From a virus (Duplodnaviria > Heunggongvirae > Uroviricota > Caudoviricetes), in IMG/VR virus record IMGVR_UViG_3300025711_000006: 64,000 nt of DNA. The stretch is one strand, 5' to 3'. Shown piece after piece: positions 39,079 through 57,346 of this stretch (positions are counted from its first letter, which is position 1; each line of letters begins with the position of its first letter). The notes below the pieces were generated by a model. The model did not search any database. It had not been told where the DNA came from and saw only the letters and a list, made by a program, of their open reading frames with translations. The translations under genes and the position numbers were made by a program.

Positions 39079-39120
39079 TGTTTACCCTTATATGAAAAGA
39101 GGGGGCATAAGCCCCCTCAA

Positions 39121-39372
39121 TTACTCGCCAGACTCAGGTGTTTCTGGGTCTGTTGCAGTAATGGTTACAACCGCTGCGTACTCTTTCAGCACCTGGGCAA
39201 CAAATACTTTTGCTGTTGGCTGTTGAGTAAGAATGTCCCGAGCCCGTGCATCTGCTTCTGCCTGAGTGGCATAGCGGACCATGTTGCTTGCGTCGTAGAC
39301 GTTGGTTGAGTTGATTGCTACATATGGCATGTTTGAAACTTCCTTTTGTGTGATATTGGTTTTTGTTGCCAT
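39121..39372 (-). CDS. hypothetical protein (83 aa) downstream of J
   Basis: ORF. Confidence 0.4.
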   Translation of the reverse strand: MATKTNITQKEVSNMPYVAINSTNVYDASNMVRYATQAEADARARDILTQQPTAKVFVAQVLKEYAAVVTITATDPETPESGE

Positions 39373-39458: not shown

Positions 39459-42400
39459 TTACCAGATTCCCATACGCACTCTTAGTACCCCATCAACAAC
39501 AACTTGAATGCCGTCTTGGTTGAATACAGAGTAAGTATTTGCCCGCGTTGGGTGCCGAGTAATAACGTTCCCGACGTTGAAGTCCTGTGTCATAACAGGG
39601 CCACCCCAGTTGGTCTGGTATGCTGAGTAGATGCCAGAGCCGATGATGGCGTTAGTTACCGTTGCCTTATTGATAAAGGCGTCAGCAATAAACGTTTGAC
39701 CGTTCTGTACAACAAACGGCGAAGTCGCTGTTCCGTTTACCGAGTTGAGAATTGCAAACCGGTCAGCAACAAAGAGCACTTGGCTCTGCATGCCGCTCGG
39801 CGTGTTCTCAATCCCGATACCCATACCGGCACCGTAGTACTGACCGTTTGAGTTCACCGCCAACTTCACACTATAAAGAGCGTTAAGCTTTCCATTCGTA
39901 GAAGACTGGGTAGACGAAAGTGTCGAGATACTAGACGTATGGCTTCCAACCGTACTGGTTAGGCTTGAAATCGACGATGCCTGCGCGGTAATAGTTGAAC
40001 CTTGCTGCGTTACTGTTGTAGCTAACGAAGTCAGGGCGCGGGCACTAGGCCCTGCAACAAACGGTGAAGGTGTAGTACCATCCACAACTTGTTTTTCCAC
40101 CATGATGGAATCGACGGTCAAGTTTGCACTTGCTGCACCATTGATATTCGGGTAGATCAAGAGTGAAACTTTTGCTCTTGTGGGGACTGTGATAATCCCT
40201 GATTGCCGAGTACGTGTAGTGGTGAAGTTGACTGCAATTTGCCGAGATGTAGTCATGTCGTACAAGTTGAACAGCGCCTGACCGGCAGTAGTGCCTCGCA
40301 TGTACATGGAAACAATGTAGTTTCCAGGCTCTAACGTCATGTTCGTTGCTGCTGTGTTGGTGGCGGACGCAAGGTAGAGGGCTGCATAAGTGTTACTGCT
40401 GCCTGTCGCTACCAAGTTAATCCCGTAACCTGAATCCGAGCCCGCAACGGCCACCCCAGTCGCTGTCAAGCCGCTTGGAACCACAGGCGGCAAGGTCGTG
40501 GAAGTCAACCAGCTATACTCATCACTCAGCAGGTTAGTACCAGTGCCTCCAATCCCGTTGAGGGAGTTAGTCAAACTGGTGATGCTACTGGATGCACTTG
40601 TTAGAGCACCTTCCGTAGAAGTTACGCGGTTGGTTAGTGCAGTCAATGCGGTAGCTTGGGCCGATACGGCACTTGCACTTGGGCCTGCAACAAACGGGCT
40701 AGCCGTTGTTCCTGGGCCTGTCTGCTTCTCAACCATCACGGAGTCAACAGTTACTTCCTGGCCGCTCACGCCGCTCATGTTGTAGTAGAACAACACAGCC
40801 ATTGTGCTTGGAGCCCCAATGGTTACGGTGTGGCTGTAACGTGTCCGAGTGGAAGTTACAGTCTGTGCTACTGAATACGCACTTGTCGTAGTTGAATACA
40901 GACGCATACGCACAGATGCAGTGGTTGGGGTTGAAGCGTAGAACGACACAATGTATGTGCCCGCTTCAATTGGCATGTTGAACCCGGCTACGTTGTTGGT
41001 AGGGCAGAGCATCAAGTAGCAGCCCGTCGAGGTGCTAGTTGAAGTCATCTTGTATCCGAAGCCTGAAGCAGACCCAGACACAGCTACACCAACAGTAGTA
41101 GTTGCACTACCGTTCGTTGTCGGCAACGCTACGGAAGTTAGCCAGCTATACTCATCTCTGAGCAAGTTGTTACCCGAGCCAGAGATTCCGCCAACTTGGT
41201 TTTGCAACGTCGTTACCGAAGAGCCCTGGGAAGTGATATTCCCTTCAGCAGTGGTTACACGTGACGTTAGAGCAGCGAGAGCAGAGCTATCGGCCTTGTT
41301 CGCCACTGTGTTGGTCAAGCTGGTGATCGAGGTGCCTTGACTTGTAATTGTCCCTTCCGCCGATGTTACTCGGGTATCCAGGGCAGACAGAGCCGTAGCT
41401 TGTGCTGAGTCCTGGGCGGCACGTTTACGAATCACAGGTGACGATACAAACACATCACTAGCGTTGCCCGCTGATACACGGAAGCACATCGCAATGCGGA
41501 TAACACCGGCTGGAATAACACGTGTTCCAGTCAGCTTCGTCCAAGTCGCAGCGGTGCTAGTCAGGCGCACACCGTCACCGCTTGCAGCCACCCAATCATG
41601 AGTGATCGAAGTACCGGCAGCGTCGTACATCTGAATCCAGATACCTACTTGGCGAGAGGCGCTTGTGTAAGCGTACATCTCGAAGTCGTATGTATCACCA
41701 GCCGCAACAACCATGTTATGAGTAACACCGGTTTCTGGAGCCTTGACGTTTGGAGTTACGATGAACCCCATGTACAAGTTGCTTGCACCTGTTGCTAGAG
41801 CCCACTTCAGTACCCGAGCGCTTGGGGATCCATCTGGTACACCGGCATCTGATCGAGCAACAACGGTAACAGCAGATTGGTTAGTGCCGTGACCAGCCGA
41901 GAACGTCGGGTCATTGACCAAGTTGTCTGTAGCAACCGAGCCAACACTTGATTGCAGGCTGGTAATCGAAGTGCCCTGGCTAGTGATCGTACCTTCTGCA
42001 TTTGTAACGCGGTTGGTTAGAGAACTTAGCGCCGTAGACTGTGCTTCGACTTGGCGAGCACTATTACCAACACTGAATGTGCTTGGCTCTGTACCAGTAC
42101 CAATCTGTTCTTCCAGCATGAAGCCGTCGTAGATGTGTGAGCTAGTTCCCGCAGTAGCGTTCTGGAAGACAAGGATCTGTGCATCACCCGCCACTGCTGC
42201 TGGAGTTGTAATCACCGCACTTACGCGGGTCCAGGTTGTGGTCACAGGCACTGTAGCTACTGCTACCTCTACAAATGATCCTGCTGCGTTTTTATAACGA
42301 AGGCGCAACTGTGAAGTCCTTGCCGCATCACCTTGAACCCAGAACGACATAATGTAGTTCTTAGTCGGCTTCAATTTCAGTGGGCAATCAGTTGAGGATG

Positions 42401-45400
42401 CTGTGAGATAGAAGTAATTGGACTGCGATACCGTGCTCACAACACGAAGAGCGTAGTTACCATACGCAGAGGTATTCGCCTCAGTTGTAATGGTGACGTT
42501 AGCCTGCTTGTGTTGCGTAGGTGCTGTGGCACCAAACACGGAGAACTCAGCGGGCATCAAGTTAACAGCAGCATTGATCCCATTGAAGGAGTTAGTCAGG
42601 CTGGTAATGCTCTGGCCCTGGCTTGTTACTGTTGTACCTTGTTGGGTCACAGTCGAAGTCAGAGAACTTAGAGCGCTTGATGTTGCGGCGATATCCGAGG
42701 CCAAGCCTTGACCGTTATCGTGCCAACCGCTTGCTTTAGAACCCGCCTCAACTTGAGGTCTTGCGAACTCAATTGTTCCGTTTGTGGCAGTAGCAGTCGT
42801 ACCGTATACGCGGTAGTAGATGTTCGCTTGAGTAGCATCAGCCGGGGCTGTTGCAGTCAAGGTGATACGTGATCCATCCACAGTGATCGGGGTCAAACTG
42901 CTCGACGGTGTTGAAAGCAGTGTTCCGGCAGCGTTTAGGAACTGGAAGTACAGTCGCATGTTCATCAGGCCAGCTTCAGCCATTCTACGAACATAGATGG
43001 ATGAAGTGAAGGTCTGCCCACCAGCAACCTTAGCCCGTGTTGTCGAAGTAGTTAGCAGCGACATATAAGGGGTAGAGCTAGTGATTCCTGTAATCGCTAC
43101 GCGCTGTGCGCGTTCGCCTGAGTTCATCCAAGATGTAACTAGGCTAGGATTCAGTCCCGCTGTGCCTTCTAGCTGCCAGCCTTCCGGCCAGTTCGCATTA
43201 GTTGCACTTGTACGGGTGAACGTCGGGTTGTACAGCAAGTTCTCAGCGCCTGCATCACCCAAAGCGTTATCCAGTTGCGTGATGTTGCTTGACGCAGTGG
43301 TGATATTGCCTTCTGCTGCTGTTACGCGGTTAGTCAGGGCGGTAAGGGCGGAAGCATCAGCCTTATTGCTCACAGTGTTAGTCAGGGATGTGATCGAGTT
43401 ACCTTGAGAGGTGATCGTGTTACCCTGGTTAGTTACTGTGGTAGTTAGGGCTGTAGTTGCATCAGCGTTGGCTTGATCCGCTGCTGTACGGCGGCGAATC
43501 ATAATGTTGCACCACAGTGATCGACCTACGTTGTCGGTCGTCTCATGGCGGATAACAATCCGGGCAGATACCGAACCTGCTGGAGCAGTGATGCTACCAG
43601 TGTAAGTCTGGAACCCGTTAGTGCCAGCCACACACTGCGCGCCAGTGTAGTAACCAATGTTCGCTGAGTTCTTATCAAAGAACTGCATCTGGAGGCGTGC
43701 CCACTGACCAGCAGTGAAGTAGTTGTTCCAGATATCCGCAGAGGTGTCGAATACTTCCCCTGGTGCTGTGATGATGTTGCGAGTAGTACCGCAGAAGCTA
43801 TTAGCGTAGAACTGGATAGCCTTACCGTATGCAGAGTGGGCTGTAATGCCTACTACGGTTGGATCGTTAGTCCAAGGACCGATATCACCATCCTCGAAAG
43901 TACCCTTCAGTACCAGATTATCTGGCGACTGTGAGAGCGACGATTGAAGCGCTGTGAGTGAGTTCCCTTGGCTAGTGATCGTGTTGCCCTGGGTGGTCAC
44001 TGTTGAGGTCAGACCGCTAATAGCGCTGCCCTGGCTAGTGATATTCCCCTCAGCCGTAGAAATACGGTTGGTTAGGCTTGTGATCGAGCTGCTTTGAGAA
44101 GTGATCGTGCCTTCAGCGGCTGTAACTCTGTTGGTCAGTGCCTGGAGTGCGGTCCCTTGTGCAGCGGCTTGCGTGTAGCTGCTTCCGCCGTTGTACGTGG
44201 ATGGCTCTGAGGATGCACCAACTTGCTTTTCAACCATGAACCGGTCGAAGTAAACTTCAGTACCCGATACACCTGAGTTGTTCGGCATGAGTGCGAAAGC
44301 CATACGGTTTCCGCTGAATGTCGAAGCGTTGGTTAGATCCATTACCGCGCTGTATCGAACCCAACTTGTGGTTAGGGTGATTAGAGCGGATACGGCGTTC
44401 ACCGCAACATCAGAACTATTCAATGCACGGAGGTATGCACGAATCTGGCGACCAGCAACGTTCGTCTTGGCGTAGAACGAGATAATGTATTTAGCATTAT
44501 CATAAGACATATTCCAGCCATCAGCAGTAGCGTTTGAAACATGCAAGTAGCAGGCAAGGGAGTTAGTAGCCAAAGAGCTAGTAAACTTCAGTGCGTAGCC
44601 ATTTTGGCATGCAGCATCAACCACCGTCGTGAAAGTCAGTCCTGCGTTGATTGCACCAATAGGCGGAACATTGGCCGAGAACACAGAGTACTCGGAAGGC
44701 ATCAAGTTAGTACCGTTACCACCAATCGCATTAACGCTGTTGGTTAGGTTGGTAATGCTCTGGCCTTGCGAAGTTGTTGTGCCTTCAACAGCAGTTACCC
44801 GGCTAGTCAGTGCTGTTACAGCGGAGCTGTCTGCCTTGTTCGCTACAGTGTTGGTCAAGCTAGTTAGTGCCGAACCTTGCGAAGTGATTGTGTTACCTTG
44901 CTGTGTAACTGTTGCAGTTAGAGCGGTTGTTGCTGCTGCGTTAGCAGCCTCACCAGCACTCTGAATAGCAACGCGCAAGTTGCCCAGCCACATCTTGAAG
45001 CCAACCGGGGAAACTGCTTCAGTCGCAAGATACACGCGGAATCCAGCAGATCCAGCAGGGAGTGTGTATTGCGTCGAGAGGGCTTGCCAGCCACCTGTTG
45101 CAGCAACGTAGCCCAGTACACGAACGTTACCTACGCTGATTGTGTTGCCTGCCGAATCGACCGGGGTAATGCAGAGCTTACCGGCGTTCGTAACAGCGTT
45201 TTCACAGAACATATGGCATGAGATATTAATTACATCTCCAGCGTTCGCCCTGGTGAAGATTTGATAGTCGTTCCCGATCTTGTTTGTGGAGGTAAGTACA
45301 ACACCGCCCCAGTTATTATCGGTTGCCTTCTTCAATCTCCACAGCAGTCTTCCAGCAGGTGGGTTAGCCGGTACACCACTGTCTGTGGCGTTGGCATAGT

Positions 45401-48400
45401 CCATCTGGTACAGGCTACCGTTCTCGGTCTTGAGAATGCCCGCTGGATCCCAGTTCGGGTTAAGCAGAACATCATCTTGCGATGTGTTACCCAGACTTGT
45501 TTGCAAGTTGGTGATGCTTTGCCCTTGGGCAGTAGCTACACCCTCTGCATTCGATACCCGGCTCGTAAGTGCCGAAGTAGCGGAAGAGTTTGCATCAATC
45601 TGTACTTGCTCGGTTACGTCTTCTACTGTGTAGTAGTCAAGAACCGCTACACCGCCTTTGCTGTTGTAGTTCGCAATCACCATTGGCGAGAACCATGCGG
45701 TTCCTGCTTTCAGGCGTTTAGGGTCAGCCGCAGTACCTGCACCTGCACCACCGTTCTCAGTTGGTGATGTGTGTCCCTTAATGTGTACGCTTACTTCTAC
45801 CCATTGACCAGTAGGGTTAATGACGTTGTTCATCAGCAAGTAGTGCGACGAACTTACGGAGTTTGCTCCCGAGTTATTAATACGGGTCACACCGTCTTCT
45901 GCGAAGCAGTTCAAGCCGAGGTATGTGGATGGCGAGGCCAAACTTACTGAAACCTGCTTCACGCGGGCAGATAGTTTGTACACGCGGGTAGGGTCAAAGC
46001 GGATGCGGCGAGTTGATTCACCCCACCAGTGACCGTTACCAGCTCCACCGCTAAGCACCATTACACCGTCATTGGTGCTGCCTGCCTCAGTACCGTAAAC
46101 GGCTGTAGCAGTCGAAGTGCTTGCATTGGATACCCACTTATCGGTTGCCATAGCGCCGAAGACGCTTTGGTAAACCTTCGTTGGCGAATTGTCCAGCGAA
46201 CCGGTTAGCTTGTTATCAAGCTGGGTAATGCTTTCTCCTTGGGATGTAACATTACCTTCGGCGGTAGTTACTCGGCTGGTCAGGGCCTGGAGGGCAGAGC
46301 TATCGGCTTTGTTTGATACTGTGTTGGTCAGGCTAGTAATCGCTTGACCTTGTGAAGTGATATTACCTTCAGCCGAAGTAACGCGGTTAGTCAAAGACTG
46401 GATTGCATTGCCTTGTGCTGCAACTTGGCCTGCGCTATTACCAATCACGAATGTGGAAGGCGTTGTCCCTGTAGCAACTTGCTCTTCGACCATGATCTTA
46501 TCGACCCACACCGGAACGCCATAGGCGCCTGATCCAGACTTCGGATCAATGCAGAGAATCATCTTCTCGGCAGGGGAAGCAGTCATATCAATGATCGTGG
46601 TATAACGTGCCCAGGAGGTCGTTACGGTCATGTTGCTTGGGTAGTGGAAGACTACGGTGCCATCGGTCTGGATAGCGCGGAAACCAGCACGTAGTTGGTG
46701 TCCATCTGTTCCAGCTCGGACATACATCGAGACGATGTATTTCTTCTGCTTCATCTGCATGTTTGCAGAACCAATCACTGTGGAAGGTGAGAGGTAAACA
46801 GTGGCTGTCCCTGAGTCCTTCTGGAAGCGCAGAGCGTAGCCAGCGAATGTTCCTGCATCTGCCTCTACAACAGCAGTAATGCCACCACCTACAACCATGC
46901 TTGGGGCTGTGTTGCTGAATGTGCAGTACTCGGCAGGGAGCAAGTTGCTACCTGTTCCGCTAATCGCACCAACTGTTGTGCTCAAGTTCGTGATCGCAGT
47001 ACCTTGAGAGGTAATTGATCCGCCCTGGGCAGTAACGGTATTGGTCAGGCCACTGATTGCAGTTCCCTGCGATGTTAGTGTGCCTTCCGCTGTTGTTACA
47101 CGGTTGGTTAGATTGGTTAGCGACGTTCCCTGAGAAGTGATCGTCCCTTCGGCAGTAGTAACACGTGCAGTCAAAGCGCTTGTAGCACTTGCTGCGTTCG
47201 TAACCGAGATAGCGCTTGTACCAGCAACGAATGGTGAAGCAGTGTTTGTTGCACCGATACGCTTCTCAACCATCACGCTATCAATGATAACTTCCATTCC
47301 CGCAACGTTAGTGCGGTTCGGGTAGATGGTTACGGCAGTGCGAGCACTATCCGTTACAGTAACCGGTAGGGTTACACGTGTACGGGCAGTGGTGAAGTTG
47401 CCGAGGCTTGTGTAACGGTGTGTGCCGTCATACAGAGAAACGATAACCTGCCCAGCATTGTTACCCTTGATGTAGAACGAAACTAGGTAAGTTCCAGGCT
47501 CAATGCGGATGTTGTATCCGGCAGCGTTATTGGTAGGCGAGAGCATCAGGAACTGGCTGCTAGCCGTAGAGTTACCGATCTGGTAGCCAAACTTCGAATC
47601 AGCCTCAGCTACTGCAACAGCCGCCGTAGTCAGGGCCGTAGTTTTTGCAACAGCGGGCAGGGTGGTCGAGGTCAACCAGCTATAAGTATCCTCCAGCAGG
47701 TTAGTGCCAGACCCTGCGATACCGTCTACAGTCGCCTGGACGTTGGTGATCGACTGACCTTGCGAGGTCAGGGTATTGCCTTGCTGAGTTACTGTGCTGC
47801 TCAAATTGCTCAGGGCATTTGAGGTTCCAGTGATATTCGTCTCAGCGTTTGTGATGCGTGTTGTGAGCCCTGTGAGCTGCGATGTGTGCGAAGTAAGGGT
47901 GTTGCCCTGGTTCGTGATCGTCGTGGTGTTTGTGCTCACCTGGGCGGCTGTTGCACCGGCTTCTTGCAGGATGGTTCCTACGTCTTTCCAGTACGTCACG
48001 TTAGGTGGAGTCTTGTTCACCGGAACGGCAATCAGAGCCTGATACAGGCGTTGACCTTTGCGGACAATATCGCCAACTGCGTAGGTCTTGGTTGCGTCGT
48101 ACTCAGCAGCCTTAACAGCTGCATCGAGGTCGGTACGCAGGCCAGCAACTGTGGTATCAACTGCATTCGCACGGTTGGTCAAAGTAGTAACACTTTGGTT
48201 CAACGAGGTAACGGAGTTGTTTACGCTTGTTTGAAGAGCTGTTACATCACCTTTAACACCAGTGATCTGGCTATTTAGGTCGTTCTTCGTATTGGTGATC
48301 TGAGTATTGAGCGAGCCTACTTGATTGGTTAGGTCGTTCTTTACATTGGTGATCTGGGTATTGATCGCTGAAACATCAGACTTAACCTTGGTATCCAGGG

Positions 48401-51020
48401 CTGTAATGTCCGACTTAGTTTTAGCAACATCGGTCTGGATTGTCCCTACATCAGTCTTAACTTGGTTAAGCGTGGTCGCAGTAGTATTAAGTTCGCCCAG
48501 TAGTTCCTGGCCAAGCTCAGTACGCCCAATCTCACCGGTAATAGACTCTAGGATCTTATCCGTACCATACTCGGAAATACCGTAAGTCCAAGCAGACCAC
48601 GGACCTTGATTGCCAGTACGGTCAATCAATCGAGCACGGAAGTAAGCAGACACACCGCCAAGCATGTTCGTCTTAACGTAACTAGTGGCCGGATATGCAA
48701 CCATTGTAAGCTCAGTTACATTGGCTCCAGTCTGAGAAGTTGCTTGTTGAATCTGGATGTACGCGGTATCTTCTGCACCGGTAGGGAATGTCCAGCTCAG
48801 GCGGATACCGAAGATTTCCGAAGCAGTGCTGAATGAAGCAGTAGCAGGCGGTAGCCCTTCCTTACCATTCAGTTGCGTATTAGCGGATTCAGTCCATACA
48901 GAGCGGGTGCCAATAGCGTTGATCGCACGTACACGGGCCTGATAGGCGCCGGAGTAGATGCCACGGACTTCGAAGCCGGTGCTTGCAGTGTTGCCGACGT
49001 TGTTCCAGTCACCACCATCTTTACGCCATTGAGCCTCATAATTCATGGCGCCCTTGGCAGGGTTCCACTTCACCGAGAGGGTTGTTACAGCCAGCGTCTG
49101 CTCAATGAATGTGAATGTGGAGAGCACTAATCCTGTAGGCGCATCTTGACCACCAGCAGGAATGCTAGTGATTGGACGGCTCTCCAGGCGAGCCCCAGTG
49201 TCGATGGCAGCGTACTTGCTATCTTCGTATTGCACGCCAGTTACTTCAAACTTGGCGTCGTTCTCAGCCCAGACCACTTTCGTGATACGGTATAGCTGAG
49301 ACTTGAGTGTTGTTTTCTCTACATACCATCCCAGCTCGGCGGTTGGAATAGCGGAGTAGTTAGCTGTTACAGTAATGACCTTACCGTTAACACTTTGGAT
49401 GGTGCGGCCTTCTCCTGAAGTTCCATCGGCCTTGTTAACGTAGAGGATATCACCAGCAACACAGTTTGGTACGCGGTCGCAAGTTACGGTCTTGAGGGTA
49501 GCTGCACTGATGCGGCCAGAGAAGCTGGATCCAGCCAACACTTGGTCGGCAATACCAACTACCTCGCCTGGGCGGGGCAGATAACCGTTCAAGCCAAGCT
49601 TGAAAGTCACCATACGGTTAATGCTGTTGGTAAGCATCTGGTACTTACCTTTACGCTGGGCTTGGCCACGGCTAGTAACGCCGATAGCAGCAATCTCAGC
49701 TTGGTTCCAAGTCTTGTAACGCTGGACTAGAGTGAGGTCGTTAACGGCCTCTACAGCGGTTTCAAAGTGGTTATCCGGGTCGTCAAACGACACAAGGGCC
49801 GTTGTGGCAATCGTCTTCTCAGAAGTAGAGCCGTAAGTGAACTTACCGTCTACAACGTTGCTACGGCTGTAAGTACGCAGGGTATTTACTGCAACAGGCA
49901 TATCCGCTGTTGCAACAATCTGTGTACCGCTCCAGTGCAGCATACCATTGAAGATGGCTACAACGTCGCGTAGGACTTGCCACGCTTCTTTGCGAGACTG
50001 GATGTAAATGTTGCAAGTGTAGCGGGGCTCTGTTCCGCCTTTACCATCCGGCACTAGTACGTCGCAGTACTGAGCCACTTGGTACAGGGTCCACTTATCG
50101 ACCATATCTGGAGTGATTCGAGCACCAAGGCCGAAACGCTCGTTTGTAACTAGGTCGTAGAATACCCAGGCAGGGTTATTAGTCCAGGCCCATTTAAATG
50201 TACCATTCCAAACTCCTGTGTACTGCCTTGTTTCAGGACTGTAGTTGGATGGTACTTGAACCATGCGACCTTTAGTCTTTACGGAAATCTTCGGGATCGA
50301 GGATCCACCGAAAGTTTCAGCATCAAACTCAACGAACAGCAGGGCTGTGTTCGGGTAGCGTAGTTTAGCGTCGATCACTTCTGCAATCGACTTAACACTC
50401 ATTATATCGCCAAACTTACCGTTGTTCTTATTCGGTGTAAGGCGGCGAATGCGGATTGTCCAAGAAGTTCCTGGCTTAGTCAGGTTGATACGGTGGGTAC
50501 GGTTGTACTCTACAGTAGTCTTCTGGCTGTTAGTGCTCCATTTCCCTTGTTCAACGTATGCTCCACCATTGGTGGACAGGTCAATGGCGTACTCAATGTT
50601 GTAGCCGACGATATCGCCATTGTCTTTCTGTTCGAACACTGCTGGGAAGGCGAGTGTTACACGAATAGCATCAAGACCTTGGGTTGTAATCAGGCGGGTC
50701 CATGGGGTTTGATCGGTGAGGGCAAGGTTAACTGCAAACTCGTTCGATACATCCGGCACGCCTGTAATATACGACTGATCGCTGCGACCAGAACGGTATT
50801 CCCACTTAACTCCGCCGAAGTTTTGCAGACCACCCGCACTTTGAAGAGGGGTGCCGTCAAGGAAAATGTTTTCAGCAGTGGGATTGCCAGCGAACTCACC
50901 TTCACCAATGGCTAGAAGCACTTTGGCGTATGATTTCGATAGCAGGGTATTCTTTTCCTCTACGGGAGTATGTTGTTTCCCGGCGCCGCCTTTGTGGCCT
51001 TGCAGAACTTTCTGATCCAT
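39459..51020 (-). CDS. giant host-specificity/central tail fiber protein (lambda J-like N-terminus + about 11 repeated beta-sandwich modules on TSQG-repeat stalks), 3853 aa
   Basis: N-terminal ~1100 aa resembles lambda gpJ domain order; position after I; C-terminal 2700 aa built of repeated ~170-aa modules ending VDSVMVEKQ.G..T.SPFVAG, separated by ALT.LTNRVT.AEG.ITSQG.SIT repeats. Confidence 0.9.
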   Translation of the reverse strand: MDQKVLQGHKGGAGKQHTPVEEKNTLLSKSYAKVLLAIGEGEFAGNPTAENIFLDGTPLQSAGGLQNFGGVKWEYRSGRSDQSYITGVPDVSNEFAVNLALTDQTPWTRLITTQGLDAIRVTLAFPAVFEQKDNGDIVGYNIEYAIDLSTNGGAYVEQGKWSTNSQKTTVEYNRTHRINLTKPGTSWTIRIRRLTPNKNNGKFGDIMSVKSIAEVIDAKLRYPNTALLFVEFDAETFGGSSIPKISVKTKGRMVQVPSNYSPETRQYTGVWNGTFKWAWTNNPAWVFYDLVTNERFGLGARITPDMVDKWTLYQVAQYCDVLVPDGKGGTEPRYTCNIYIQSRKEAWQVLRDVVAIFNGMLHWSGTQIVATADMPVAVNTLRTYSRSNVVDGKFTYGSTSEKTIATTALVSFDDPDNHFETAVEAVNDLTLVQRYKTWNQAEIAAIGVTSRGQAQRKGKYQMLTNSINRMVTFKLGLNGYLPRPGEVVGIADQVLAGSSFSGRISAATLKTVTCDRVPNCVAGDILYVNKADGTSGEGRTIQSVNGKVITVTANYSAIPTAELGWYVEKTTLKSQLYRITKVVWAENDAKFEVTGVQYEDSKYAAIDTGARLESRPITSIPAGGQDAPTGLVLSTFTFIEQTLAVTTLSVKWNPAKGAMNYEAQWRKDGGDWNNVGNTASTGFEVRGIYSGAYQARVRAINAIGTRSVWTESANTQLNGKEGLPPATASFSTASEIFGIRLSWTFPTGAEDTAYIQIQQATSQTGANVTELTMVAYPATSYVKTNMLGGVSAYFRARLIDRTGNQGPWSAWTYGISEYGTDKILESITGEIGRTELGQELLGELNTTATTLNQVKTDVGTIQTDVAKTKSDITALDTKVKSDVSAINTQITNVKNDLTNQVGSLNTQITNTKNDLNSQITGVKGDVTALQTSVNNSVTSLNQSVTTLTNRANAVDTTVAGLRTDLDAAVKAAEYDATKTYAVGDIVRKGQRLYQALIAVPVNKTPPNVTYWKDVGTILQEAGATAAQVSTNTTTITNQGNTLTSHTSQLTGLTTRITNAETNITGTSNALSNLSSTVTQQGNTLTSQGQSITNVQATVDGIAGSGTNLLEDTYSWLTSTTLPAVAKTTALTTAAVAVAEADSKFGYQIGNSTASSQFLMLSPTNNAAGYNIRIEPGTYLVSFYIKGNNAGQVIVSLYDGTHRYTSLGNFTTARTRVTLPVTVTDSARTAVTIYPNRTNVAGMEVIIDSVMVEKRIGATNTASPFVAGTSAISVTNAASATSALTARVTTAEGTITSQGTSLTNLTNRVTTAEGTLTSQGTAISGLTNTVTAQGGSITSQGTAITNLSTTVGAISGTGSNLLPAEYCTFSNTAPSMVVGGGITAVVEADAGTFAGYALRFQKDSGTATVYLSPSTVIGSANMQMKQKKYIVSMYVRAGTDGHQLRAGFRAIQTDGTVVFHYPSNMTVTTSWARYTTIIDMTASPAEKMILCIDPKSGSGAYGVPVWVDKIMVEEQVATGTTPSTFVIGNSAGQVAAQGNAIQSLTNRVTSAEGNITSQGQAITSLTNTVSNKADSSALQALTSRVTTAEGNVTSQGESITQLDNKLTGSLDNSPTKVYQSVFGAMATDKWVSNASTSTATAVYGTEAGSTNDGVMVLSGGAGNGHWWGESTRRIRFDPTRVYKLSARVKQVSVSLASPSTYLGLNCFAEDGVTRINNSGANSVSSSHYLLMNNVINPTGQWVEVSVHIKGHTSPTENGGAGAGTAADPKRLKAGTAWFSPMVIANYNSKGGVAVLDYYTVEDVTEQVQIDANSSATSALTSRVSNAEGVATAQGQSITNLQTSLGNTSQDDVLLNPNWDPAGILKTENGSLYQMDYANATDSGVPANPPAGRLLWRLKKATDNNWGGVVLTSTNKIGNDYQIFTRANAGDVINISCHMFCENAVTNAGKLCITPVDSAGNTISVGNVRVLGYVAATGGWQALSTQYTLPAGSAGFRVYLATEAVSPVGFKMWLGNLRVAIQSAGEAANAAATTALTATVTQQGNTITSQGSALTSLTNTVANKADSSAVTALTSRVTAVEGTTTSQGQSITNLTNSVNAIGGNGTNLMPSEYSVFSANVPPIGAINAGLTFTTVVDAACQNGYALKFTSSLATNSLACYLHVSNATADGWNMSYDNAKYIISFYAKTNVAGRQIRAYLRALNSSDVAVNAVSALITLTTSWVRYSAVMDLTNASTFSGNRMAFALMPNNSGVSGTEVYFDRFMVEKQVGASSEPSTYNGGSSYTQAAAQGTALQALTNRVTAAEGTITSQSSSITSLTNRISTAEGNITSQGSAISGLTSTVTTQGNTITSQGNSLTALQSSLSQSPDNLVLKGTFEDGDIGPWTNDPTVVGITAHSAYGKAIQFYANSFCGTTRNIITAPGEVFDTSADIWNNYFTAGQWARLQMQFFDKNSANIGYYTGAQCVAGTNGFQTYTGSITAPAGSVSARIVIRHETTDNVGRSLWCNIMIRRRTAADQANADATTALTTTVTNQGNTITSQGNSITSLTNTVSNKADASALTALTNRVTAAEGNITTASSNITQLDNALGDAGAENLLYNPTFTRTSATNANWPEGWQLEGTAGLNPSLVTSWMNSGERAQRVAITGITSSTPYMSLLTTSTTRAKVAGGQTFTSSIYVRRMAEAGLMNMRLYFQFLNAAGTLLSTPSSSLTPITVDGSRITLTATAPADATQANIYYRVYGTTATATNGTIEFARPQVEAGSKASGWHDNGQGLASDIAATSSALSSLTSTVTQQGTTVTSQGQSITSLTNSFNGINAAVNLMPAEFSVFGATAPTQHKQANVTITTEANTSAYGNYALRVVSTVSQSNYFYLTASSTDCPLKLKPTKNYIMSFWVQGDAARTSQLRLRYKNAAGSFVEVAVATVPVTTTWTRVSAVITTPAAVAGDAQILVFQNATAGTSSHIYDGFMLEEQIGTGTEPSTFSVGNSARQVEAQSTALSSLTNRVTNAEGTITSQGTSITSLQSSVGSVATDNLVNDPTFSAGHGTNQSAVTVVARSDAGVPDGSPSARVLKWALATGASNLYMGFIVTPNVKAPETGVTHNMVVAAGDTYDFEMYAYTSASRQVGIWIQMYDAAGTSITHDWVAASGDGVRLTSTAATWTKLTGTRVIPAGVIRIAMCFRVSAGNASDVFVSSPVIRKRAAQDSAQATALSALDTRVTSAEGTITSQGTSITSLTNTVANKADSSALAALTSRVTTAEGNITSQGSSVTTLQNQVGGISGSGNNLLRDEYSWLTSVALPTTNGSATTTVGVAVSGSASGFGYKMTSTSTSTGCYLMLCPTNNVAGFNMPIEAGTYIVSFYASTPTTASVRMRLYSTTTSAYSVAQTVTSTRTRYSHTVTIGAPSTMAVLFYYNMSGVSGQEVTVDSVMVEKQTGPGTTASPFVAGPSASAVSAQATALTALTNRVTSTEGALTSASSSITSLTNSLNGIGGTGTNLLSDEYSWLTSTTLPPVVPSGLTATGVAVAGSDSGYGINLVATGSSNTYAALYLASATNTAATNMTLEPGNYIVSMYMRGTTAGQALFNLYDMTTSRQIAVNFTTTRTRQSGIITVPTRAKVSLLIYPNINGAASANLTVDSIMVEKQVVDGTTPSPFVAGPSARALTSLATTVTQQGSTITAQASSISSLTSTVGSHTSSISTLSSTQSSTNGKLNALYSVKLAVNSNGQYYGAGMGIGIENTPSGMQSQVLFVADRFAILNSVNGTATSPFVVQNGQTFIADAFINKATVTNAIIGSGIYSAYQTNWGGPVMTQDFNVGNVITRHPTRANTYSVFNQDGIQVVVDGVLRVRMGIW

Positions 51021-51031
51021 TTGATTCCTCT

Positions 51032-51667
51032 TTAAGTCCGGTCCTCTGCAAAGATTCCGGCTGAAATAACGGCACCGCCGATTTCACGCTCTCCGTATAG
51101 GAGGCCAACCGGCGTACCTTGAGCTGTAGTGTTTACTGGCCCGCCGAACGCATAGGCCGAAGTGTTCTCGCCATCACTCTTGGTCTTTAAACCAGTGTTA
51201 GCGGTGGGGGTGAGCATTTGAACAACGCCCCCTACGGCCATAGCGAAGCCAGCCATTGCCAGAGCCCCAGTGAAGCCACCAGCGGAGAGCGCGCCACCCC
51301 AGCCTGCCGCACCTAGTACGCCAAGACCGGCTACACCCCCTGTAGCAACAACGGCAATGGCCATAAGTGCTACGCCGAGAACTACCGAGAACCCACCGCC
51401 ATTCTTTCGACCCCCATAAATAGGGGCGATACGAATTTCTGGTTTGGCGCCTAGCGTTAGTTCTTCTTCAGTAATGTTCCGTTTGCCATTAAAAACGGCA
51501 AATGCCATACCCCGGTACTCCGAGGTTTCGATAAAGTGTTTGAAGCCAGGAAGCATCACGCCCAGGGCATGAACGGCTTCGGCTGGGCTCTTCACAGAAA
51601 CTTCGAACTCGCGGCCAAACTTTCGCAAGTGGCCGTAGAGTTTTACTTTAACAAGTCTCTCCGACAT
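51032..51667 (-). CDS. tail assembly protein I-like
   Basis: 211 aa; Gly-rich hydrophobic central region typical of the lambda gpI family; position between K and J. Confidence 0.75.
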   Translation of the reverse strand: MSERLVKVKLYGHLRKFGREFEVSVKSPAEAVHALGVMLPGFKHFIETSEYRGMAFAVFNGKRNITEEELTLGAKPEIRIAPIYGGRKNGGGFSVVLGVALMAIAVVATGGVAGLGVLGAAGWGGALSAGGFTGALAMAGFAMAVGGVVQMLTPTANTGLKTKSDGENTSAYAFGGPVNTTAQGTPVGLLYGEREIGGAVISAGIFAEDRT

Positions 51668-52469
51668 AATCTTTGTGCCTTAGAATAAAGGATGTGCGGT
51701 GCAGCCACTGTCCTCCGTAGATTTCAACAGCCGATTTACGCGAATGCATGTGGTGCAGGATGAATGGACCTTGGCCGAAGATATCCAACTCTTCATCTGG
51801 AAGTTTTGGATCTGAGCCGAGGTAGATAGCTGCGTGGTTGGGGTGATAAGTTCGCCCAATCTGCATCACTATCAAATCACCTACTTGAATTTCATCTAGG
51901 GGGACTTTATAGAAGCCGCATTCTTTGAAGTTATCTTCGTACCAAGAAACTCCGTCCTTGTCTTCCCACCAGTTATCTTCACGCTGGAAGTTGGGGAAGG
52001 TGAGGCCAGAAGTGCGGAAGTAGTAGTCTGCACAGCACTGCCAACAGTCGTGGAGGCCGTGAACAAACTCCCTACCAGTGAGAGGTACGCCACCTTGGGC
52101 TACAATCTGCCTAAAATCACCGTCTGGCCACGATACGATGATCCAGGGGGTTGGCTTGGCTTCAGGGTCTAAGGCCAGCTCCAGGGCGTAGTAGCGTTCC
52201 ATGAAGGCTAAGTCGAATGTACTGGGCTGGCTGGTTGCGTCTGGGTGGGAATGCACGATGGCTTCCAACTCTCCCAGGTCCAGGGCGTCAGTCATATCTT
52301 CCGGGCACATCTGAAACTCTTGGGTGGGATCTTCAGAGACGTTCTTGCAAGGGAAGTATTGCGGATGGCCTTCAATACTCACGATAACGCCACAGGCTTC
52401 CCGTGGATATTCCTTGGCTGCGTGACGACGAATGTCCTCTCGCAGATTCTCATCTTCAAATACTTCCAT
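51648..52469 (-). CDS. tail assembly protein K-like (JAMM/MPN + NlpC/P60)
   Basis: HSHPDATSQPSTFD = HxHx7Sx2D JAMM motif; C-terminal Cys/His NlpC/P60-like; 20-nt overlap with I. Confidence 0.85.
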   Translation of the reverse strand: MEVFEDENLREDIRRHAAKEYPREACGVIVSIEGHPQYFPCKNVSEDPTQEFQMCPEDMTDALDLGELEAIVHSHPDATSQPSTFDLAFMERYYALELALDPEAKPTPWIIVSWPDGDFRQIVAQGGVPLTGREFVHGLHDCWQCCADYYFRTSGLTFPNFQREDNWWEDKDGVSWYEDNFKECGFYKVPLDEIQVGDLIVMQIGRTYHPNHAAIYLGSDPKLPDEELDIFGQGPFILHHMHSRKSAVEIYGGQWLHRTSFILRHKDYVGETC

Positions 52470-52477
52470 GTACTTCC

Positions 52478-53209
52478 TTAGTTCATTAGGGCACTTGCAG
52501 GGAAGCCGCCGAAACTCAGGGGGTTTGTTGCCCCCTGGCGGGGCTTACAGCCGGTGCCGAGCAGACCTGAGCACCTATCCTTGGCTGGGTCTGTTACTGG
52601 GTTGCCATCCGCATCGAAGTAAGCTGTGCCTGTATAGCCGCAATCAGCTCCGCGATACTGCCCCTGGAGCATCCAATAGCAAATGCTGTGGATCTGCCGA
52701 GCAGGAATGAGTTTGCCGGTAGTGTCCGCTGGGTTGGATAGGCTCCATGAAATGGAAACGTTATCCTCATTAGTCTTGCGGTCGATGTACCAGACTTGTA
52801 CAAACTCTTGGGATGGGTCAGCCCCAGGTTCGCCGTCCAAGTAGTGCTGGAAGGTGATGTGAATAGTTACCTTTGCCTGGGCAAGGTCATTAAGTGCAAG
52901 GCACAGAGAGCTAATTGTGGCGTCAACGTTTGCAACCGATAGGGTCGGGTTTGCTGTTGAGCCAGTACCATCAATCTCAATGCCGTCGAGGTCATATGGC
53001 CAGCAAGCGTATTCTTGCCCTTGCCAGATAAGTTTCTTCGGCGGTAGCTCTGTACCAAGATATTGTGCTGCTTGTAATTCGGACTGTGTGTATTCCACGT
53101 TGTAGTTGTGGAAGTGCAGCAAAGGACCGTTGAATTCTGTGCAGTCAACTTCGATTAGTCGGACCCGCTGGCCCGGTTCGAGCTTCTGCACATCTAATTT
53201 GATAGGCAT
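52478..53209 (-). CDS. minor tail protein L-like
   Basis: 243 aa; C-terminal Cys cluster (CGYTG...CSGLLGTGC); gene order M-L-K-I. Confidence 0.8.
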   Translation of the reverse strand: MPIKLDVQKLEPGQRVRLIEVDCTEFNGPLLHFHNYNVEYTQSELQAAQYLGTELPPKKLIWQGQEYACWPYDLDGIEIDGTGSTANPTLSVANVDATISSLCLALNDLAQAKVTIHITFQHYLDGEPGADPSQEFVQVWYIDRKTNEDNVSISWSLSNPADTTGKLIPARQIHSICYWMLQGQYRGADCGYTGTAYFDADGNPVTDPAKDRCSGLLGTGCKPRQGATNPLSFGGFPASALMN

Positions 53210-53221
53210 CAGCTCTCCTAA

Positions 53222-53560
53222 TTAAGCTGCATATGCTTTGGTAAACGTGCCTGTAAAGGAGAAAGTATTCCCGCCAACTTCCATTGGCTTAGGGTCTTTG
53301 CACTTGTACAAGCCGATCTGGCCTAGAGGGTTCGTCCAGAAGAACGATTTATACCCAGCCAGGGCATCAAGGAAGGTCATAATGGCGAGGACTTCAGTGT
53401 CCGTGCCGGTAAAACTCACTTCCCAGGATTCTGTTTTGTTGTTAACGCCTTCACCTACGTCTTGACTGTAACCATCTCCGAACTGAGCAGAGCGAACGGT
53501 ATAGCCAATAGTGGGCTGGGCCTGGGTACTGATTACCCAAGTGAATGTTGGTGTTGCCAT
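53222..53560 (-). CDS. minor tail protein M-like
   Basis: 112 aa; position after the tape measure gene. Confidence 0.7.
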   Translation of the reverse strand: MATPTFTWVISTQAQPTIGYTVRSAQFGDGYSQDVGEGVNNKTESWEVSFTGTDTEVLAIMTFLDALAGYKSFFWTNPLGQIGLYKCKDPKPMEVGGNTFSFTGTFTKAYAA

Positions 53561-53599: not shown

Positions 53600-56500
53600 T
53601 CAACCTTGCATTGATTTCCAGATATCACCACCTGGCTGTAGGTCTTTGCTGATAAGTTGCTTGTAGCGCTGGTCTACGAACTCACCTACCTGGCTTCCGA
53701 ACGAAGAGTAATCAGGCGAAGACGTTGAAGTCTGCTTGTTGCCCTGTCCGTCGATGGTGATGTAAACTTGTACACCTCCACCGCTGTTCTGTTGCAGGCC
53801 AGATACATCGACCGATGCACGAACACCCAGAGAGCCGTCTGAGGCCCGAGTCAGTGGCATAATTGCCTCTGGCCCAGCTTCACCCATGACGTTGTTGTTG
53901 CTCTTGTTGGTAGAGAACGAGGTGGGTTTGTTAACGATAGAGTTGGTGAAAGCACCACCCTTAGCGAAGTACTGAGTACCGCCGTCGAATGCAGCTCCCT
54001 TGGCAGCCATCATGCCCATATCCATTGCCGAAGCACTGTTCATGGAAGCACCAGATGGAGCGCTTGGAGCGGCCCACATAGTCAACACAGCAGCGAGAGC
54101 CCGTGAAGTAGCAATACGCACAGCCATTCGCGCCAAGTCATTCAAGATGGCCTTGGTGAGGTCTGCAAATGAAGCCTTACCGGTTGTAACGAAACTCACA
54201 AGCGAATCTTCCATGCTGTTGAAGGCATTGGTGAAGACTTGGTTAGTCATTGCGGCGTAGTTTTGGCCATCCTCAATGTACTGCTTGTAAGCACTGCTGA
54301 TACCGGCACCCCAGTCTGCCTGGGCCGCTTTCATATCTTCGTAGTTGCTGATGATCTGCTTCTTCATTGCAGTGTGGGCCGCAGCCGATGCACGAAGGTT
54401 GGCAATCACTTCCTCTTGGTCACGCCCTGGCTCACCCAGTTGCAGGGTAAGAGTACGCTGTTCGTCGTTGTAACGATCATCTTCCGCGTTGAGCTGGTCT
54501 TGCAGACCGGCTTGGCCACTGCTCATCGAGAGGGCAGCGCGTTGACGTTGACCAGCAACCTCCAGGTTCTTAACCATTTGGTTGAGGTTTTCAGCGTAGG
54601 CAGAGATAGCCTTATTCTGCTTAGCCAGTCGGGCTTCTTCATCCCCGGCAAGCTTCTTCAGCTTCTTCTCAGACTCTTCCTGGGCAACCACCATCTTCGA
54701 GCGAGCATCAGCAATTTGCCGATCAAGTGAGATGGTCTGGTTAGCAGAAATGTTCTTACTGCCTTTCAGCTTCTCCAGAGAATCAATTTGATTCTGGTAA
54801 GCCTGTGATACCTGCTTGGCTTCCTCTTGCAGAAGAGCCTTACGCTTCTCAACTCCCGCAGACAACCCGATAGTACCGGCGTTCTGCTGCTGAATGATTT
54901 CCTCATTCAGGGTTTGATACCGGGCCTTAACTTCGTTGACTTGGTTCTGGAACTCATTGGCGTCTGTGTTATCGAGAATGGCGGAACGTGGTTTACGTCC
55001 TTGCTTCTCTTTAAACTTACGCTCAGCTTCAGCTTTGAGTGTGTCGTAAGCACCGCCCTTATATCCGCCTTCCTTCGTCCAAGTGACGCCTTCCAGCATC
55101 TTTGGTAGGGTCTTCAGCGTCTTGGCGTTTTCTACGAGGTCATCAAACTGTTTGTTAAGCGCTTCGAGGTATGTGTTCTTCTTGGCGTCTTTACCGGCGT
55201 TCTCAAGATCCTTGAATAGTTTCTTCTCAGTCTCTACTACTTCTTGGTTCGCTTTGGTTCGCCTTGCAACTTCCTCGTCGTACTTATTCTTGAAGTCGCG
55301 GCGTCTGATAAGCGATTGAAGTTGCTCAGCAAGTGCCTCGTCTGAGTTTGCACCGAAGCCCATAAAGCTTGAAACGAAGCCTGTAACGCCACCCTCTTTG
55401 CGGGTCTTAAGGATCCGCTGAATCTGCACGATTTCATCGTTTAGATCGGGGAAGAGTTCGGCACGTACAGCACCATAAGCATTACTGATCGCCGTCTTTA
55501 CATCCATCCAATCTCTTTCGAGGTCGGAGAGAGATTCACGATAGCGCTCCAGTCGCTCCTGGGCGTTGTCTGCAAGACCTTGGCTCAATACGTCCATGGC
55601 CTCTTCGGTTTCGCCTTTCTTCTCCAGGGCGCGAATAGTTTCATACTGAGCAGCGGTAACAAGACCGTACTTAGCACTAAGCTTCTCGGCTTTCTCGGCA
55701 GCGGTATCACCCAGGGTTGCAAGCTCTTCGGCAACCTTGGCAATGTCTTGCCCGGAGGTTACAGCAATGGCTTGCGCAGCCTTACCGAAATTGGCTAGAC
55801 GGCCAGCGGAAACTTCACCAGTAGCAGCAAGAGCCCTGATGGCGTCCTGAGCTTCAGCGATAGAGTTACCGGCGACTGTGGCGCCTTCAGCAATGATTTC
55901 CAGGCCGTACTTGGAAGTGCCGACCAGCTCATTACCTTTGTAGATGGCAGCGTTGAGGGCCGACATACGGCGCTCTGTGTCATACCAGATAGCTGCGAGG
56001 CCGACGAATACAGCACCTACGGCCATACCCGGTGTAACTAGGGACATAAGGCCCTGGGCAACACCTTTAAGGGCAGGACCAACACCGCCGAACATATCCT
56101 TAATCTGACCACCCTGTTGCAGGAACACGGTCAGAGGGGCTTGGCCACCTTGGAGGGATACTGCAATGTCGGTGAACTGAGCGGGGAGGCCCATCTGTGC
56201 CATCTGAAGCTGCTTAGCAGTCAGGGCAGTGCGGCCTAGGGAGTCTTTGTAGCGGTCAGTCTTGGCGCGAAGTTCGTCAATCTTGCTCTGATACTTGGTG
56301 CGTTGCTCTTCGGTAACATCACCTTTGGCATACGCGGTATTCAGGGAATTTTCGAGCTTGGCTAGACGTTGACGCTCTTTTGTAACTGGGTCGATGGCGG
56401 CTAGGAGGTTATCCAGAGCCTTCGCTTCGTCTTCAGCAGAAGCCTTGCGGCGTTTCGAGTTACTTACGGCAGCGTCGGCTGAGTCATTATCAGCCTTAAT

Positions 56501-57346
56501 GCCAGCAAGTGTACTATTCTTTTTCTCTTTGTCAAGAGCCAAGAGGCGATTATGAGCATCATTTCGGTATTTAACCCGAGATTTTTCAGTTGCCTCTTCC
56601 TGCTTGAGGTATTCCTTGTTCTGCTTGTCGCCTTCCTTCAGCCAGTTGTTAAGGCGAGACTTCTCAGCGGCCTCTTCCTCTTCAGCTAGTTTCTGGCGAG
56701 CCTTTGAAGCACTGGCCAGGGCTGAATGCCGGTCGTTAATCTCTTTGGCTTCGGCTTGCTTCTGCTTTTCAGCACTTGCATACCAGTTTTGAAGGCGTTG
56801 ATCCTCGGCGGCTGCTTCTTCTGCGTTTCGCTTCTGGCGAGCCTGGGAGCCCTTGGCTAGTGAGTCGAGGTATTCCGACTGGACAGTCTTCTGCGTTTCG
56901 GCGCTACTGTACCAAGCATCGAGGCGCTGTCTTTCTGCCGCCGCCTCTTTCTTGTTGACCTGCTCAACTACGTTCCCCCGCTCAATGATCTTTTGGCGCT
57001 GGGTGTCAATGATCTGGTTGTACTTCGCGGCAGTCTCATCGGAGTAAGTACCAGCAGCACGGGCTTCATTGAGAAGCTGTTGTTGCTTGGCCAACTTGTT
57101 GAGGCTGCTGGTCTGTCTATCAATCTGCTCAAGCAGCTTGTTGCCATCCGGTGCAGGCTTCGGCGTAGCGGGCTTAGGTTGAGCAGGGGCTTTAGGTGGG
57201 GGAGTGGGTTTAACGGGCGGAGCTGGCTTATTCAGGGGGCTATTTTCTAGCCCCTTGGAAGCCTGGATCAACTCATTAACTTTGTCTGTGGCTGCTTCTA
57301 CTTGCGTGGAGTCAACCTTAATTTGCAAGTTAGCAATAAACGTCAT
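53600..57346 (-). CDS. tail tape measure protein (1248 aa)
   Basis: Coiled-coil rich; three Trp-containing tandem repeats (AAERQRLDAWYSSAE / EDQRLQNWYASAE / EKSRLNNWLKEG); Pro-rich N-terminal segment; position after G/T. Confidence 0.9.
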   Translation of the reverse strand: MTFIANLQIKVDSTQVEAATDKVNELIQASKGLENSPLNKPAPPVKPTPPPKAPAQPKPATPKPAPDGNKLLEQIDRQTSSLNKLAKQQQLLNEARAAGTYSDETAAKYNQIIDTQRQKIIERGNVVEQVNKKEAAAERQRLDAWYSSAETQKTVQSEYLDSLAKGSQARQKRNAEEAAAEDQRLQNWYASAEKQKQAEAKEINDRHSALASASKARQKLAEEEEAAEKSRLNNWLKEGDKQNKEYLKQEEATEKSRVKYRNDAHNRLLALDKEKKNSTLAGIKADNDSADAAVSNSKRRKASAEDEAKALDNLLAAIDPVTKERQRLAKLENSLNTAYAKGDVTEEQRTKYQSKIDELRAKTDRYKDSLGRTALTAKQLQMAQMGLPAQFTDIAVSLQGGQAPLTVFLQQGGQIKDMFGGVGPALKGVAQGLMSLVTPGMAVGAVFVGLAAIWYDTERRMSALNAAIYKGNELVGTSKYGLEIIAEGATVAGNSIAEAQDAIRALAATGEVSAGRLANFGKAAQAIAVTSGQDIAKVAEELATLGDTAAEKAEKLSAKYGLVTAAQYETIRALEKKGETEEAMDVLSQGLADNAQERLERYRESLSDLERDWMDVKTAISNAYGAVRAELFPDLNDEIVQIQRILKTRKEGGVTGFVSSFMGFGANSDEALAEQLQSLIRRRDFKNKYDEEVARRTKANQEVVETEKKLFKDLENAGKDAKKNTYLEALNKQFDDLVENAKTLKTLPKMLEGVTWTKEGGYKGGAYDTLKAEAERKFKEKQGRKPRSAILDNTDANEFQNQVNEVKARYQTLNEEIIQQQNAGTIGLSAGVEKRKALLQEEAKQVSQAYQNQIDSLEKLKGSKNISANQTISLDRQIADARSKMVVAQEESEKKLKKLAGDEEARLAKQNKAISAYAENLNQMVKNLEVAGQRQRAALSMSSGQAGLQDQLNAEDDRYNDEQRTLTLQLGEPGRDQEEVIANLRASAAAHTAMKKQIISNYEDMKAAQADWGAGISSAYKQYIEDGQNYAAMTNQVFTNAFNSMEDSLVSFVTTGKASFADLTKAILNDLARMAVRIATSRALAAVLTMWAAPSAPSGASMNSASAMDMGMMAAKGAAFDGGTQYFAKGGAFTNSIVNKPTSFSTNKSNNNVMGEAGPEAIMPLTRASDGSLGVRASVDVSGLQQNSGGGVQVYITIDGQGNKQTSTSSPDYSSFGSQVGEFVDQRYKQLISKDLQPGGDIWKSMQG

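Follow-up and report, generated by a model that had tools for sequence, protein, structure and literature searches.

Eleven globular modules on a segmented coiled-coil stalk in a giant gpJ-like central tail fibre from a metagenomic phage contig

We analyzed a giant gene on the minus strand of a 64,000-nucleotide stretch of DNA (the window) from the Caudoviricetes record IMGVR_UViG_3300025711_000006 of IMG/VR. The gene, here named J, encodes a protein of 3853 amino acids (aa) resembling the central tail fibre protein gpJ of phage lambda. The window covers 64 kb of a 107-kb contig available from ENA, which stems from a short-read MEGAHIT metagenome assembly. The gene and its main parts besides the module array are as follows.

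39459..51020, minus strand: giant J-like central tail fibre gene (intact open reading frame (ORF), Shine-Dalgarno sequence, PHROG 2589, PHROG 31, Pfam J domains)
48471..51020, minus strand: gpJ-type tail-tip hub and FNIII domains, aa 1-850 (collinear with gpJ and the F2-pyocin fibre)
47718..48470, minus strand: proximal coiled-coil stalk, aa 851-1101 (family matches to DUF4795, SlyX and SMC; hydrophobic period 3.6)
47976..48113, minus strand: small insert resembling carbohydrate-binding modules (CBMs) of the CBM5/12 type, aa 970-1015 (Pfam CBM_5_12)
39459..40037, minus strand: final 44-aa coiled coil followed by the tail-tip-fibre domain and a short cap at the C-terminus, aa 3662-3853

The extent of the ORF given by an earlier reading of the DNA (here called the sequence-only reading) was exact: 3853 codons starting with ATG and free of internal stops. 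A Shine-Dalgarno sequence (AGAGGA) is located 6 nt 5' of the ATG, directly past the stop codon of gene I. An identical copy of the protein is called on 4 contigs of public assemblies. Within the gene the module copies are 60-80% identical in DNA, Tandem Repeats Finder (TRF) detected no tandem arrays, and a repeat scan found no long exact repeats, so that repeat collapse or mis-joining is very unlikely. The same range fits the earlier figure of ~70% similarity and its interpretation as old, maintained duplications. No DNA match was found by megablast against phages. A diversity-generating or invertible system was considered and rejected, as the scan saw no inverted repeats and no repeat that J shares with other parts of the window.

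The proposed identity as a gpJ-like protein is supported by the gene order M-L-K-I-J, the Pfam J domains and the collinearity with known structures. Searches with phmmer against the PDB aligned aa 12-848 of J with lambda gpJ 4-839 (E 1.7e-103) and aa 4-861 with residues 3-860 of the F2-pyocin central fibre (E 8.6e-264). The Pfam domains FNIII-A_GpJ (91-218) and Phage-tail_3 (343-506) both scored far over their cut-offs, while the full-length NCBIfam model lambda_TipJ gave 469 bits against a cut-off of 1950. The gpJ-like organization had been assigned to the N-terminal ~1100 aa; this is correct for aa 1-850 but not for aa 851-1101, which form coiled coil and the CBM5/12-like insert.

The C-terminal end carries a second conserved part that had gone unmentioned, the tail-tip-fibre domain Phage_Tail_Tip (PF09327) at aa 3698-3800 (E 1.5e-36, 125.7 bits against a cut-off of 22). 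Here, aa 3695-3818 align with gpJ 842-964 and with the F2-pyocin fibre 1034-1181. In gpJ the two conserved parts adjoin (residues 839 and 842), whereas in J they lie ~2830 residues apart. Since both flanks match adjoining parts of gpJ, the ~2830 residues represent one insertion at a single junction.

Past the tip domain only ~35 aa remain, while the gpJ alignment ends at residue 964 of 1132; the lambda-type LamB-binding C-terminal domain is therefore absent. In lambda the last ~150 aa of gpJ bind LamB, a feature that is lambda-specific and not general in the wider family. The C-terminus of J resembles the pyocin type. The very end of the protein, '...VVVDGVLRVRMGIW' (39459-39560, minus strand; within the last ~35 aa), is a conserved terminal motif that recurs as '...RV(R/K)(M/L/I)G(I/V/R)W' at the extreme end of otherwise differing giant fibres, namely P0121, P0126, P0164, P0178 and orf49 of Acinetobacter phage AM106.

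The insertion holds 11 globular modules of 153-203 aa each, with boundaries derived from fragment self-BLAST, inspection and all-against-all phmmer comparison.

47211..47717, minus strand: M1, type A1, aa 1102-1270 (phmmer E ~1e-41 to M10 and M11)
46431..46964, minus strand: M2, type A2, aa 1353-1530 (phmmer E 1e-21 to 1e-32 to M5 and M8)
45603..46211, minus strand: M3, distinct type C, aa 1604-1806 (no significant match to other modules)
44955..45494, minus strand: M4, type B, aa 1843-2022 (phmmer E 5e-7 to M6 and 7e-6 to M9; hhalign B4-B9 99%)
44175..44726, minus strand: M5, type A2, aa 2099-2282 (phmmer and alignment)
43479..43937, minus strand: M6, type B, aa 2362-2514 (hhalign B6-B9 96%)
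42705..43265, minus strand: M7, divergent B' with links to both A2 and B, aa 2586-2772 (phmmer E 5e-5 to M8 and 3e-4 to M9)
42057..42584, minus strand: M8, type A2, aa 2813-2988 (phmmer and alignment)
41412..41945, minus strand: M9, type B, aa 3026-3203 (E 7e-32 to residues 1620-1793 of Pseudomonas phage Lana gp20)
40671..41189, minus strand: M10, type A1, aa 3278-3450 (the A1 module chosen for modelling)
40038..40556, minus strand: M11, type A1, aa 3489-3661 (phmmer and alignment)

The number of about eleven tandem modules alternating with a stalk, as read from the sequence before, was thus recovered. The division into two flavours was too coarse: types A and B do exist, but A separates into A1 (M1, M10 and M11; mutual E ~1e-41) and A2 (M2, M5 and M8; mutual E 1e-21 to 1e-32), with E values of 1e-6 to 1e-23 between both groups, B (M4, M6 and M9) has the divergent M7 at its side, and M3 is distinct. 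The end motif described for type A, VDS(V/I)MVEKQ..GTT.SPFVAG, terminates M1, M10 and M11, while M2, M5 and M8 end in variants of it. The start motif of type B (NLV..PTF) is found in M6, M7 and M9; the RRR/RKR end is restricted to M6 and M9.

The mutual relation of the B modules was weak by phmmer. Profile-profile comparison with hhalign, using family alignments built from relatives, joined A1, A2, B4, B6, B7 and B9 into one superfamily (10 of the 11 modules) with probabilities of 93-100% along the chain; M7 reached 93-98% to A2, B4, B6 and B9. M3 was only weakly linked to this superfamily (63% or 9.5%, depending on the direction of the comparison).

Between and around the modules runs a stalk of 13 heptad coiled-coil segments, 36-148 aa in length, with inter-module linkers of 36-82 aa. 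Linkers, a proximal segment of 280 residues (822-1101) and a distal one of 44 residues add up to ~930 residues including the 46-residue insert, or ~880 coiled-coil residues. All segments show a hydrophobic period of 3.5-3.7, and the autocorrelation of L/I/V/M is raised at lags 7 (3.1x), 14 (3.0x) and 21 (3.4x). By this periodicity the stalk is a canonical heptad coiled coil, and the 'TSQG'-type repeat noticed earlier corresponds to a 21-residue repeat of it. If the ~880 residues were fully helical (0.148 nm per residue), the stalk would be ~130 nm long; the tail itself would measure ~190 nm as estimated from the tape measure protein.

The insert within the proximal stalk (aa 970-1015, ~46 residues) is chitin-binding type 3-like and matched CBM_5_12 with E 3.2e-4 and 21.1 bits, under the cut-off of 26.2. 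Lana gp20 and the inspected giant relatives carry the same insert at the equivalent place, which makes it a conserved feature of the lineage.

A structural model of M10, for which paralogues and homologues had been aligned in 16 rows, had a mean predicted local distance difference test score (pLDDT) of 94.4 and a predicted template modelling score (pTM) of 0.89. AlphaFold2 (AF2) models of M3 and M4, for which the joint alignment was built with stalk anchors, were all-beta, with block pLDDT mostly >90 for M3. The beta-jelly-roll fold, which the sequence-only reading had expected, is confirmed for types A and B and probable for M3; for M7 the fold is assigned by homology only. The top structural matches were CBMs binding xylan, xyloglucan, cellulose, porphyran and laminarin, at 6-16% identity. 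Furthermore, a Foldseek search against viral models (BFVD) revealed the module fold in the CenC-like CBMs that many tail proteins of phages carry. In the proposed search against CBM families, M3 (E 0.004, 18.0 bits), M6 (E 0.0013, 19.5 bits) and M9 (E 0.005, 17.6 bits) matched Pfam CBM_4_9, all of them sub-threshold, and the type A modules did not match this family.

Relatives were sought by scoring a profile built from all six A modules exhaustively against 1.84 billion representative proteins. The profile hit 589 proteins at E <=1e-3, several giants among them. M9 alone gave no match in a word-indexed set of 5.8 billion proteins, a set whose matches seemed limited to ~1100 aa. In the fetched proteins, modules of all types were counted.

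This protein: 3853 aa, 11 modules
P0121, P0122, P0123 and P0124: 3585-3992 aa, 10 modules each
P0130: 3236 aa, 8 modules
P0125 and P0126: 3258 and 3186 aa, 7 modules each
P0129 (Pseudomonas phage Lana gp20), P0127, P0128 and P0135: 2413-3061 aa, 5 modules each
P0131 and P0132: 2327 and 2452 aa, 4 modules each

The module number therefore varies from 4 to 11 among related J proteins, J having the highest count of the proteins examined by one. The same plan of J core, alternating stalk and jelly-roll modules, and tip domain was found in Lana gp20, AM106 orf49 and P0121-P0132. Additionally, J matched PHROG 2589 (profile length 3686) in ten stretches with E 0. The kind is thus already represented by proteins of cultured phages (Lana, AM106), by PHROG 2589 and by many metagenomic proteins. 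J is therefore not singular, given relatives with 10 modules and a cultured-phage fibre of 3489 aa.

The best matches of the individual parts were scattered over different proteins. They were P0127 for the N-terminal core (79%), P0121 for M2 (82%) and M4 (70%), P0122 for M3 (83%) and M5 (82%), P0126 for M6 (77%), M9 (63%), M10 (74%) and the tip (88%), P0130 for M7 (53%) and P0141 for M8 (60%). The giant J family is clearly mosaic. Both this scatter and the range of module numbers fit the suggestion that the gene is a substrate for module shuffling.

Species-representative bacterial genomes (Serratia, Pectobacterium, Proteus, Morganella and others) contained J homologues with 44-49% identity, in one case 32%. 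Most of these were 1050-1340 aa in size, and no modules were found in them; they pointed neither to the host nor to close relatives. Two further giants without a J-like N-terminus, P0137 (7239 aa) and P0161 (6542 aa), contain many copies of A-type and M3-type modules; these cassettes are thus also in use in another class of giant fibre.

On the same strand, 5' of J, are found a head maturation protease, the major head protein, two major tail proteins, the tape measure and the M-L-K-I block (51032..53560), which contains the Pfam domains Phage_tail_L, Prok-JAB and NLPC_P60. 3' of J follow an 83-aa ORF and a hairpin, then a DUF1353 gene and the genes of an endolysin and a spanin-like protein.

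53600..57346, minus strand: tape measure, 1248 aa (PHROG 24, E 9e-156)
53222-53560, minus strand: gene M (PHROG 14)
52478-53209, minus strand: gene L (PHROG 18)
51648-52469, minus strand: gene K (PHROG 30)
51032-51667, minus strand: gene I (the M, L, K, I set corresponds to PHROGs 14, 18, 30 and 32)
39099..39372, minus strand: small ORF of 83 aa, next after J (ORF list)
39118-39099: strong terminator-like hairpin between J and the DUF1353 gene
38713-39078, minus strand: DUF1353 gene, directly 3' of J (PHROG 1158, labelled 'tail assembly chaperone')
8423-9394, minus strand: tyrosine-integrase homologue (PHROG 1, E 1e-45)

Because the hairpin parts it from J and the endolysin gene comes next, the DUF1353 gene may form part of the lysis unit instead of assisting the fibre. 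Neither the ORFs of the window nor PHROG searches revealed a side-fibre gene in the interval from J to the lysis genes; the J fibre would therefore probably provide primary adsorption. The integrase homologue points to a temperate phage or an integrated prophage, and by its gene content the source is a temperate lambda-like siphophage or prophage. The whole window is free of tRNA genes.

Siphophages normally have a single tail tube protein. Two paralogous major tail protein genes were present here, at 58107-58748 (minus strand, 213 aa) and 60429-61067 (minus strand, 212 aa), both matching PHROG 584 (E 7e-77 and 8e-56, respectively). A 493-aa ORF at 31275-32756 (plus strand) without PHROG or Pfam match is overlapped nearly wholly by a 434-aa ORF at 31341-32645 (minus strand). 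Several other ORFs of the window had no matches in Pfam either.

Based on these data we would rather regard J as a trimeric central fibre homologous to gpJ that probably serves the multivalent, multi-specific capture of host glycans by its inserted array of CBM4/9/22-like jelly-rolls, which are of at least three sequence types, a reading we favour with moderate confidence. By analogy with the solved structures of gpJ and F-pyocin, the fibre would be a homotrimer. Here, aa 1-850 would build the tail-tip hub and FNIII collar and the last ~190 residues the distal tip. Between both, the trimer would extend as a long rod beaded with 11 whorls, each made up of three lectin-like domains, which amounts to 33 such domains per virion. 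These whorls may capture host surface polysaccharide (O-antigen, capsule or exopolysaccharide) reversibly and with high avidity, thereby bringing the distal tip to its final receptor, and the differing module types could confer several specificities for glycans, thereby widening the host range or making it more robust. The heptad-repeat linkers, which are conserved between copies and between phages, could act as recombination sites for the gain, loss and exchange of modules. The array parallels the CBM-bearing Tal extensions and 'evolved' Dit/Tal proteins of phages of Gram-positive bacteria, in which CBMs of this kind were shown to bind the host (PMC7291167).

Several points weigh against glycan capture. 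We infer the binding of carbohydrate or receptor from the fold only, and the same jelly-roll occurs in ephrin-receptor, MAM and reelin domains, so that the fold by itself is no proof of sugar binding. No module reaches the CBM_4_9 cut-off of 25.9 bits (17.6-19.5 bits in the matches above). Furthermore, the residues conserved among the type A copies lie mainly in the start and end motifs of the modules, and a conserved ligand site was not identified among these copies. Finally, with 64 kb of the 107-kb contig in the window, a further fibre gene may be located elsewhere on the contig.

The modules could instead be structural spacers without ligand, which set the length and stiffness needed to cross capsule, slime or S-layer and leave binding to the distal tip alone. 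The long stalk, with ~880 coiled-coil residues beside a tape measure of 1248 aa, the position of the conserved type A residues and the wide range of fibre length among relatives (2300-4000 aa) are in agreement with this. However, coiled coil alone would give length far more cheaply, at least three divergent module families are kept across many phages at 50-83% identity, suggesting selection on the modules themselves, and in structure they come closest to genuine glycan binders and to adhesion proteins of phages. We therefore consider spacers unlikely.

A more far-reaching proposal starts from the F7 pyocin fibre. According to a 2026 preprint, its coiled coil at this site turns into a beta-prism on receptor binding and so powers the opening of the tip, and the same switch is predicted for many siphophage fibres (PMC12874032). 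The array of J could accordingly be an elaborated conformational 'spring', in which glycan-engaged whorls trigger or propagate a coiled-coil rearrangement that reels the tip ~130 nm to the cell and opens it; in a more modest form of the proposal, each type of module would be a separate host-range determinant within a multi-host receptor panel that recombination can reprogram. An uninterrupted coiled coil of ~160 aa next to the beta-prism seed of the tip is not present in J, where the coiled coil is divided into 13 segments and 44 aa adjoin the tip. The strand pattern SxSxxMxxLxS matched 19 times in the stalk against 13.3 +/- 3.5 in shuffles, which is no significant enrichment. Neither the segment layout nor the strand-motif count thus gave positive evidence for a fold switch in the stalk, and we regard this proposal as rather unlikely.

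Immunoglobulin (Ig)-like capsid decorations have been proposed to hold virions where their hosts live. The modules of J might similarly bind glycans of the habitat, such as plant or algal cell wall, mucins or biofilm matrix, and keep virions near hosts. The ligands of the top structural matches (xylan, xyloglucan, cellulose, porphyran, laminarin) and the metagenomic origin of the sequence would suit this explanation, but a fold similarity at 6-16% identity is uninformative on specificity, and the domains are located on the infection organelle, not on the capsid. Since CBMs of siphophage tail tips were moreover shown to bind the host (PMC7291167), habitat binding appears distinctly improbable. 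Still less probable, to our judgement, is that some modules, especially M3, are glycan-degrading jelly-rolls (GH16- or lyase-like) with which the fibre digests its way through capsule or exopolysaccharide. An assembly artefact by mis-joined or expanded repeats or a decaying pseudogene, for which only the internally repeated modules and the short-read MEGAHIT origin could speak, is effectively excluded, as copies of 60-80% DNA identity without long exact repeats are resolvable by short reads, the identical protein is called on four contigs, the 11.5 kb of the gene are free of stops, and relatives of 3200-4000 aa, cultured phages among them, share the architecture.

Lambda-like central fibres are usually treated as proteins of ~1100 residues with a single receptor-binding end. 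J and its relatives show that the junction of collar and tip can accommodate lectin-like, exchangeable cassettes amounting to kilobases. Should the modules bind glycans, as we favour, such fibres would be natural multi-specific adhesins of high avidity and a source of parts for the retargeting of phages or pyocins. A segmented rod of possibly ~130 nm also raises the question how a trigger of the coiled-coil-to-beta-prism type would work, either by passing a signal along the rod or by delivering the tip to the membrane. A description of the giant multi-module J architecture was not found in the published literature.

Compared with known systems, J is like lambda gpJ and the F-type pyocin fibre in its position after M-L-K-I, in the hub and FNIII domains and in the tip-fibre domain. 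In gpJ, however, nothing lies between hub and tip, and the F-pyocin fibre has one coiled coil of ~160 residues at the insertion site (PMC12874032), whereas J carries ~2830 residues there.

Lana gp20, a 'tail fiber protein' of 2505 aa (Lanavirus), has the identical plan and shares with J the core, the coiled coil with the CBM5/12-like insert, TSQG-type heptads, modules of the types A1, A2 and B, and the tip. It differs in its five modules in the order A1-A2-B-A2-A1, in an identity to J of only ~35% and in its C-terminal end, and it lacks modules of the M3, M4, M6 and M7 types. The 'central fiber' orf49 of AM106 (3489 aa) and the Acba_ series are giant fibres of cultured temperate phages. Like J, orf49 alternates TSQG-type coiled coil with beta modules, carries M3-like and A-like modules and ends with '...RVRIGRW', but most of its modules belong to other families with weak matches to those of J, and a separate side-fibre gene follows. 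P0121-P0126 and PHROG 2589 have 3186-3992 aa and 7-10 modules of the same families, individual ones being 60-88% identical to those of J, although module order and content differ in each of P0121-P0126.

For streptococcal and lactococcal phages it is established that Tal extensions bearing CBMs bind saccharides of the host (PMC7291167). There, as in STP1, DT1 and BppA of Tuc2009, one to few CBMs are placed in the galectin loops of Dit, in the N-terminal domain of Tal or in Tal extensions. Unlike these Dit and Tal proteins of the Gram-positive systems, J combines a gpJ-type protein of a proteobacterial phage with a serial array of 11 modules on a segmented coiled coil.

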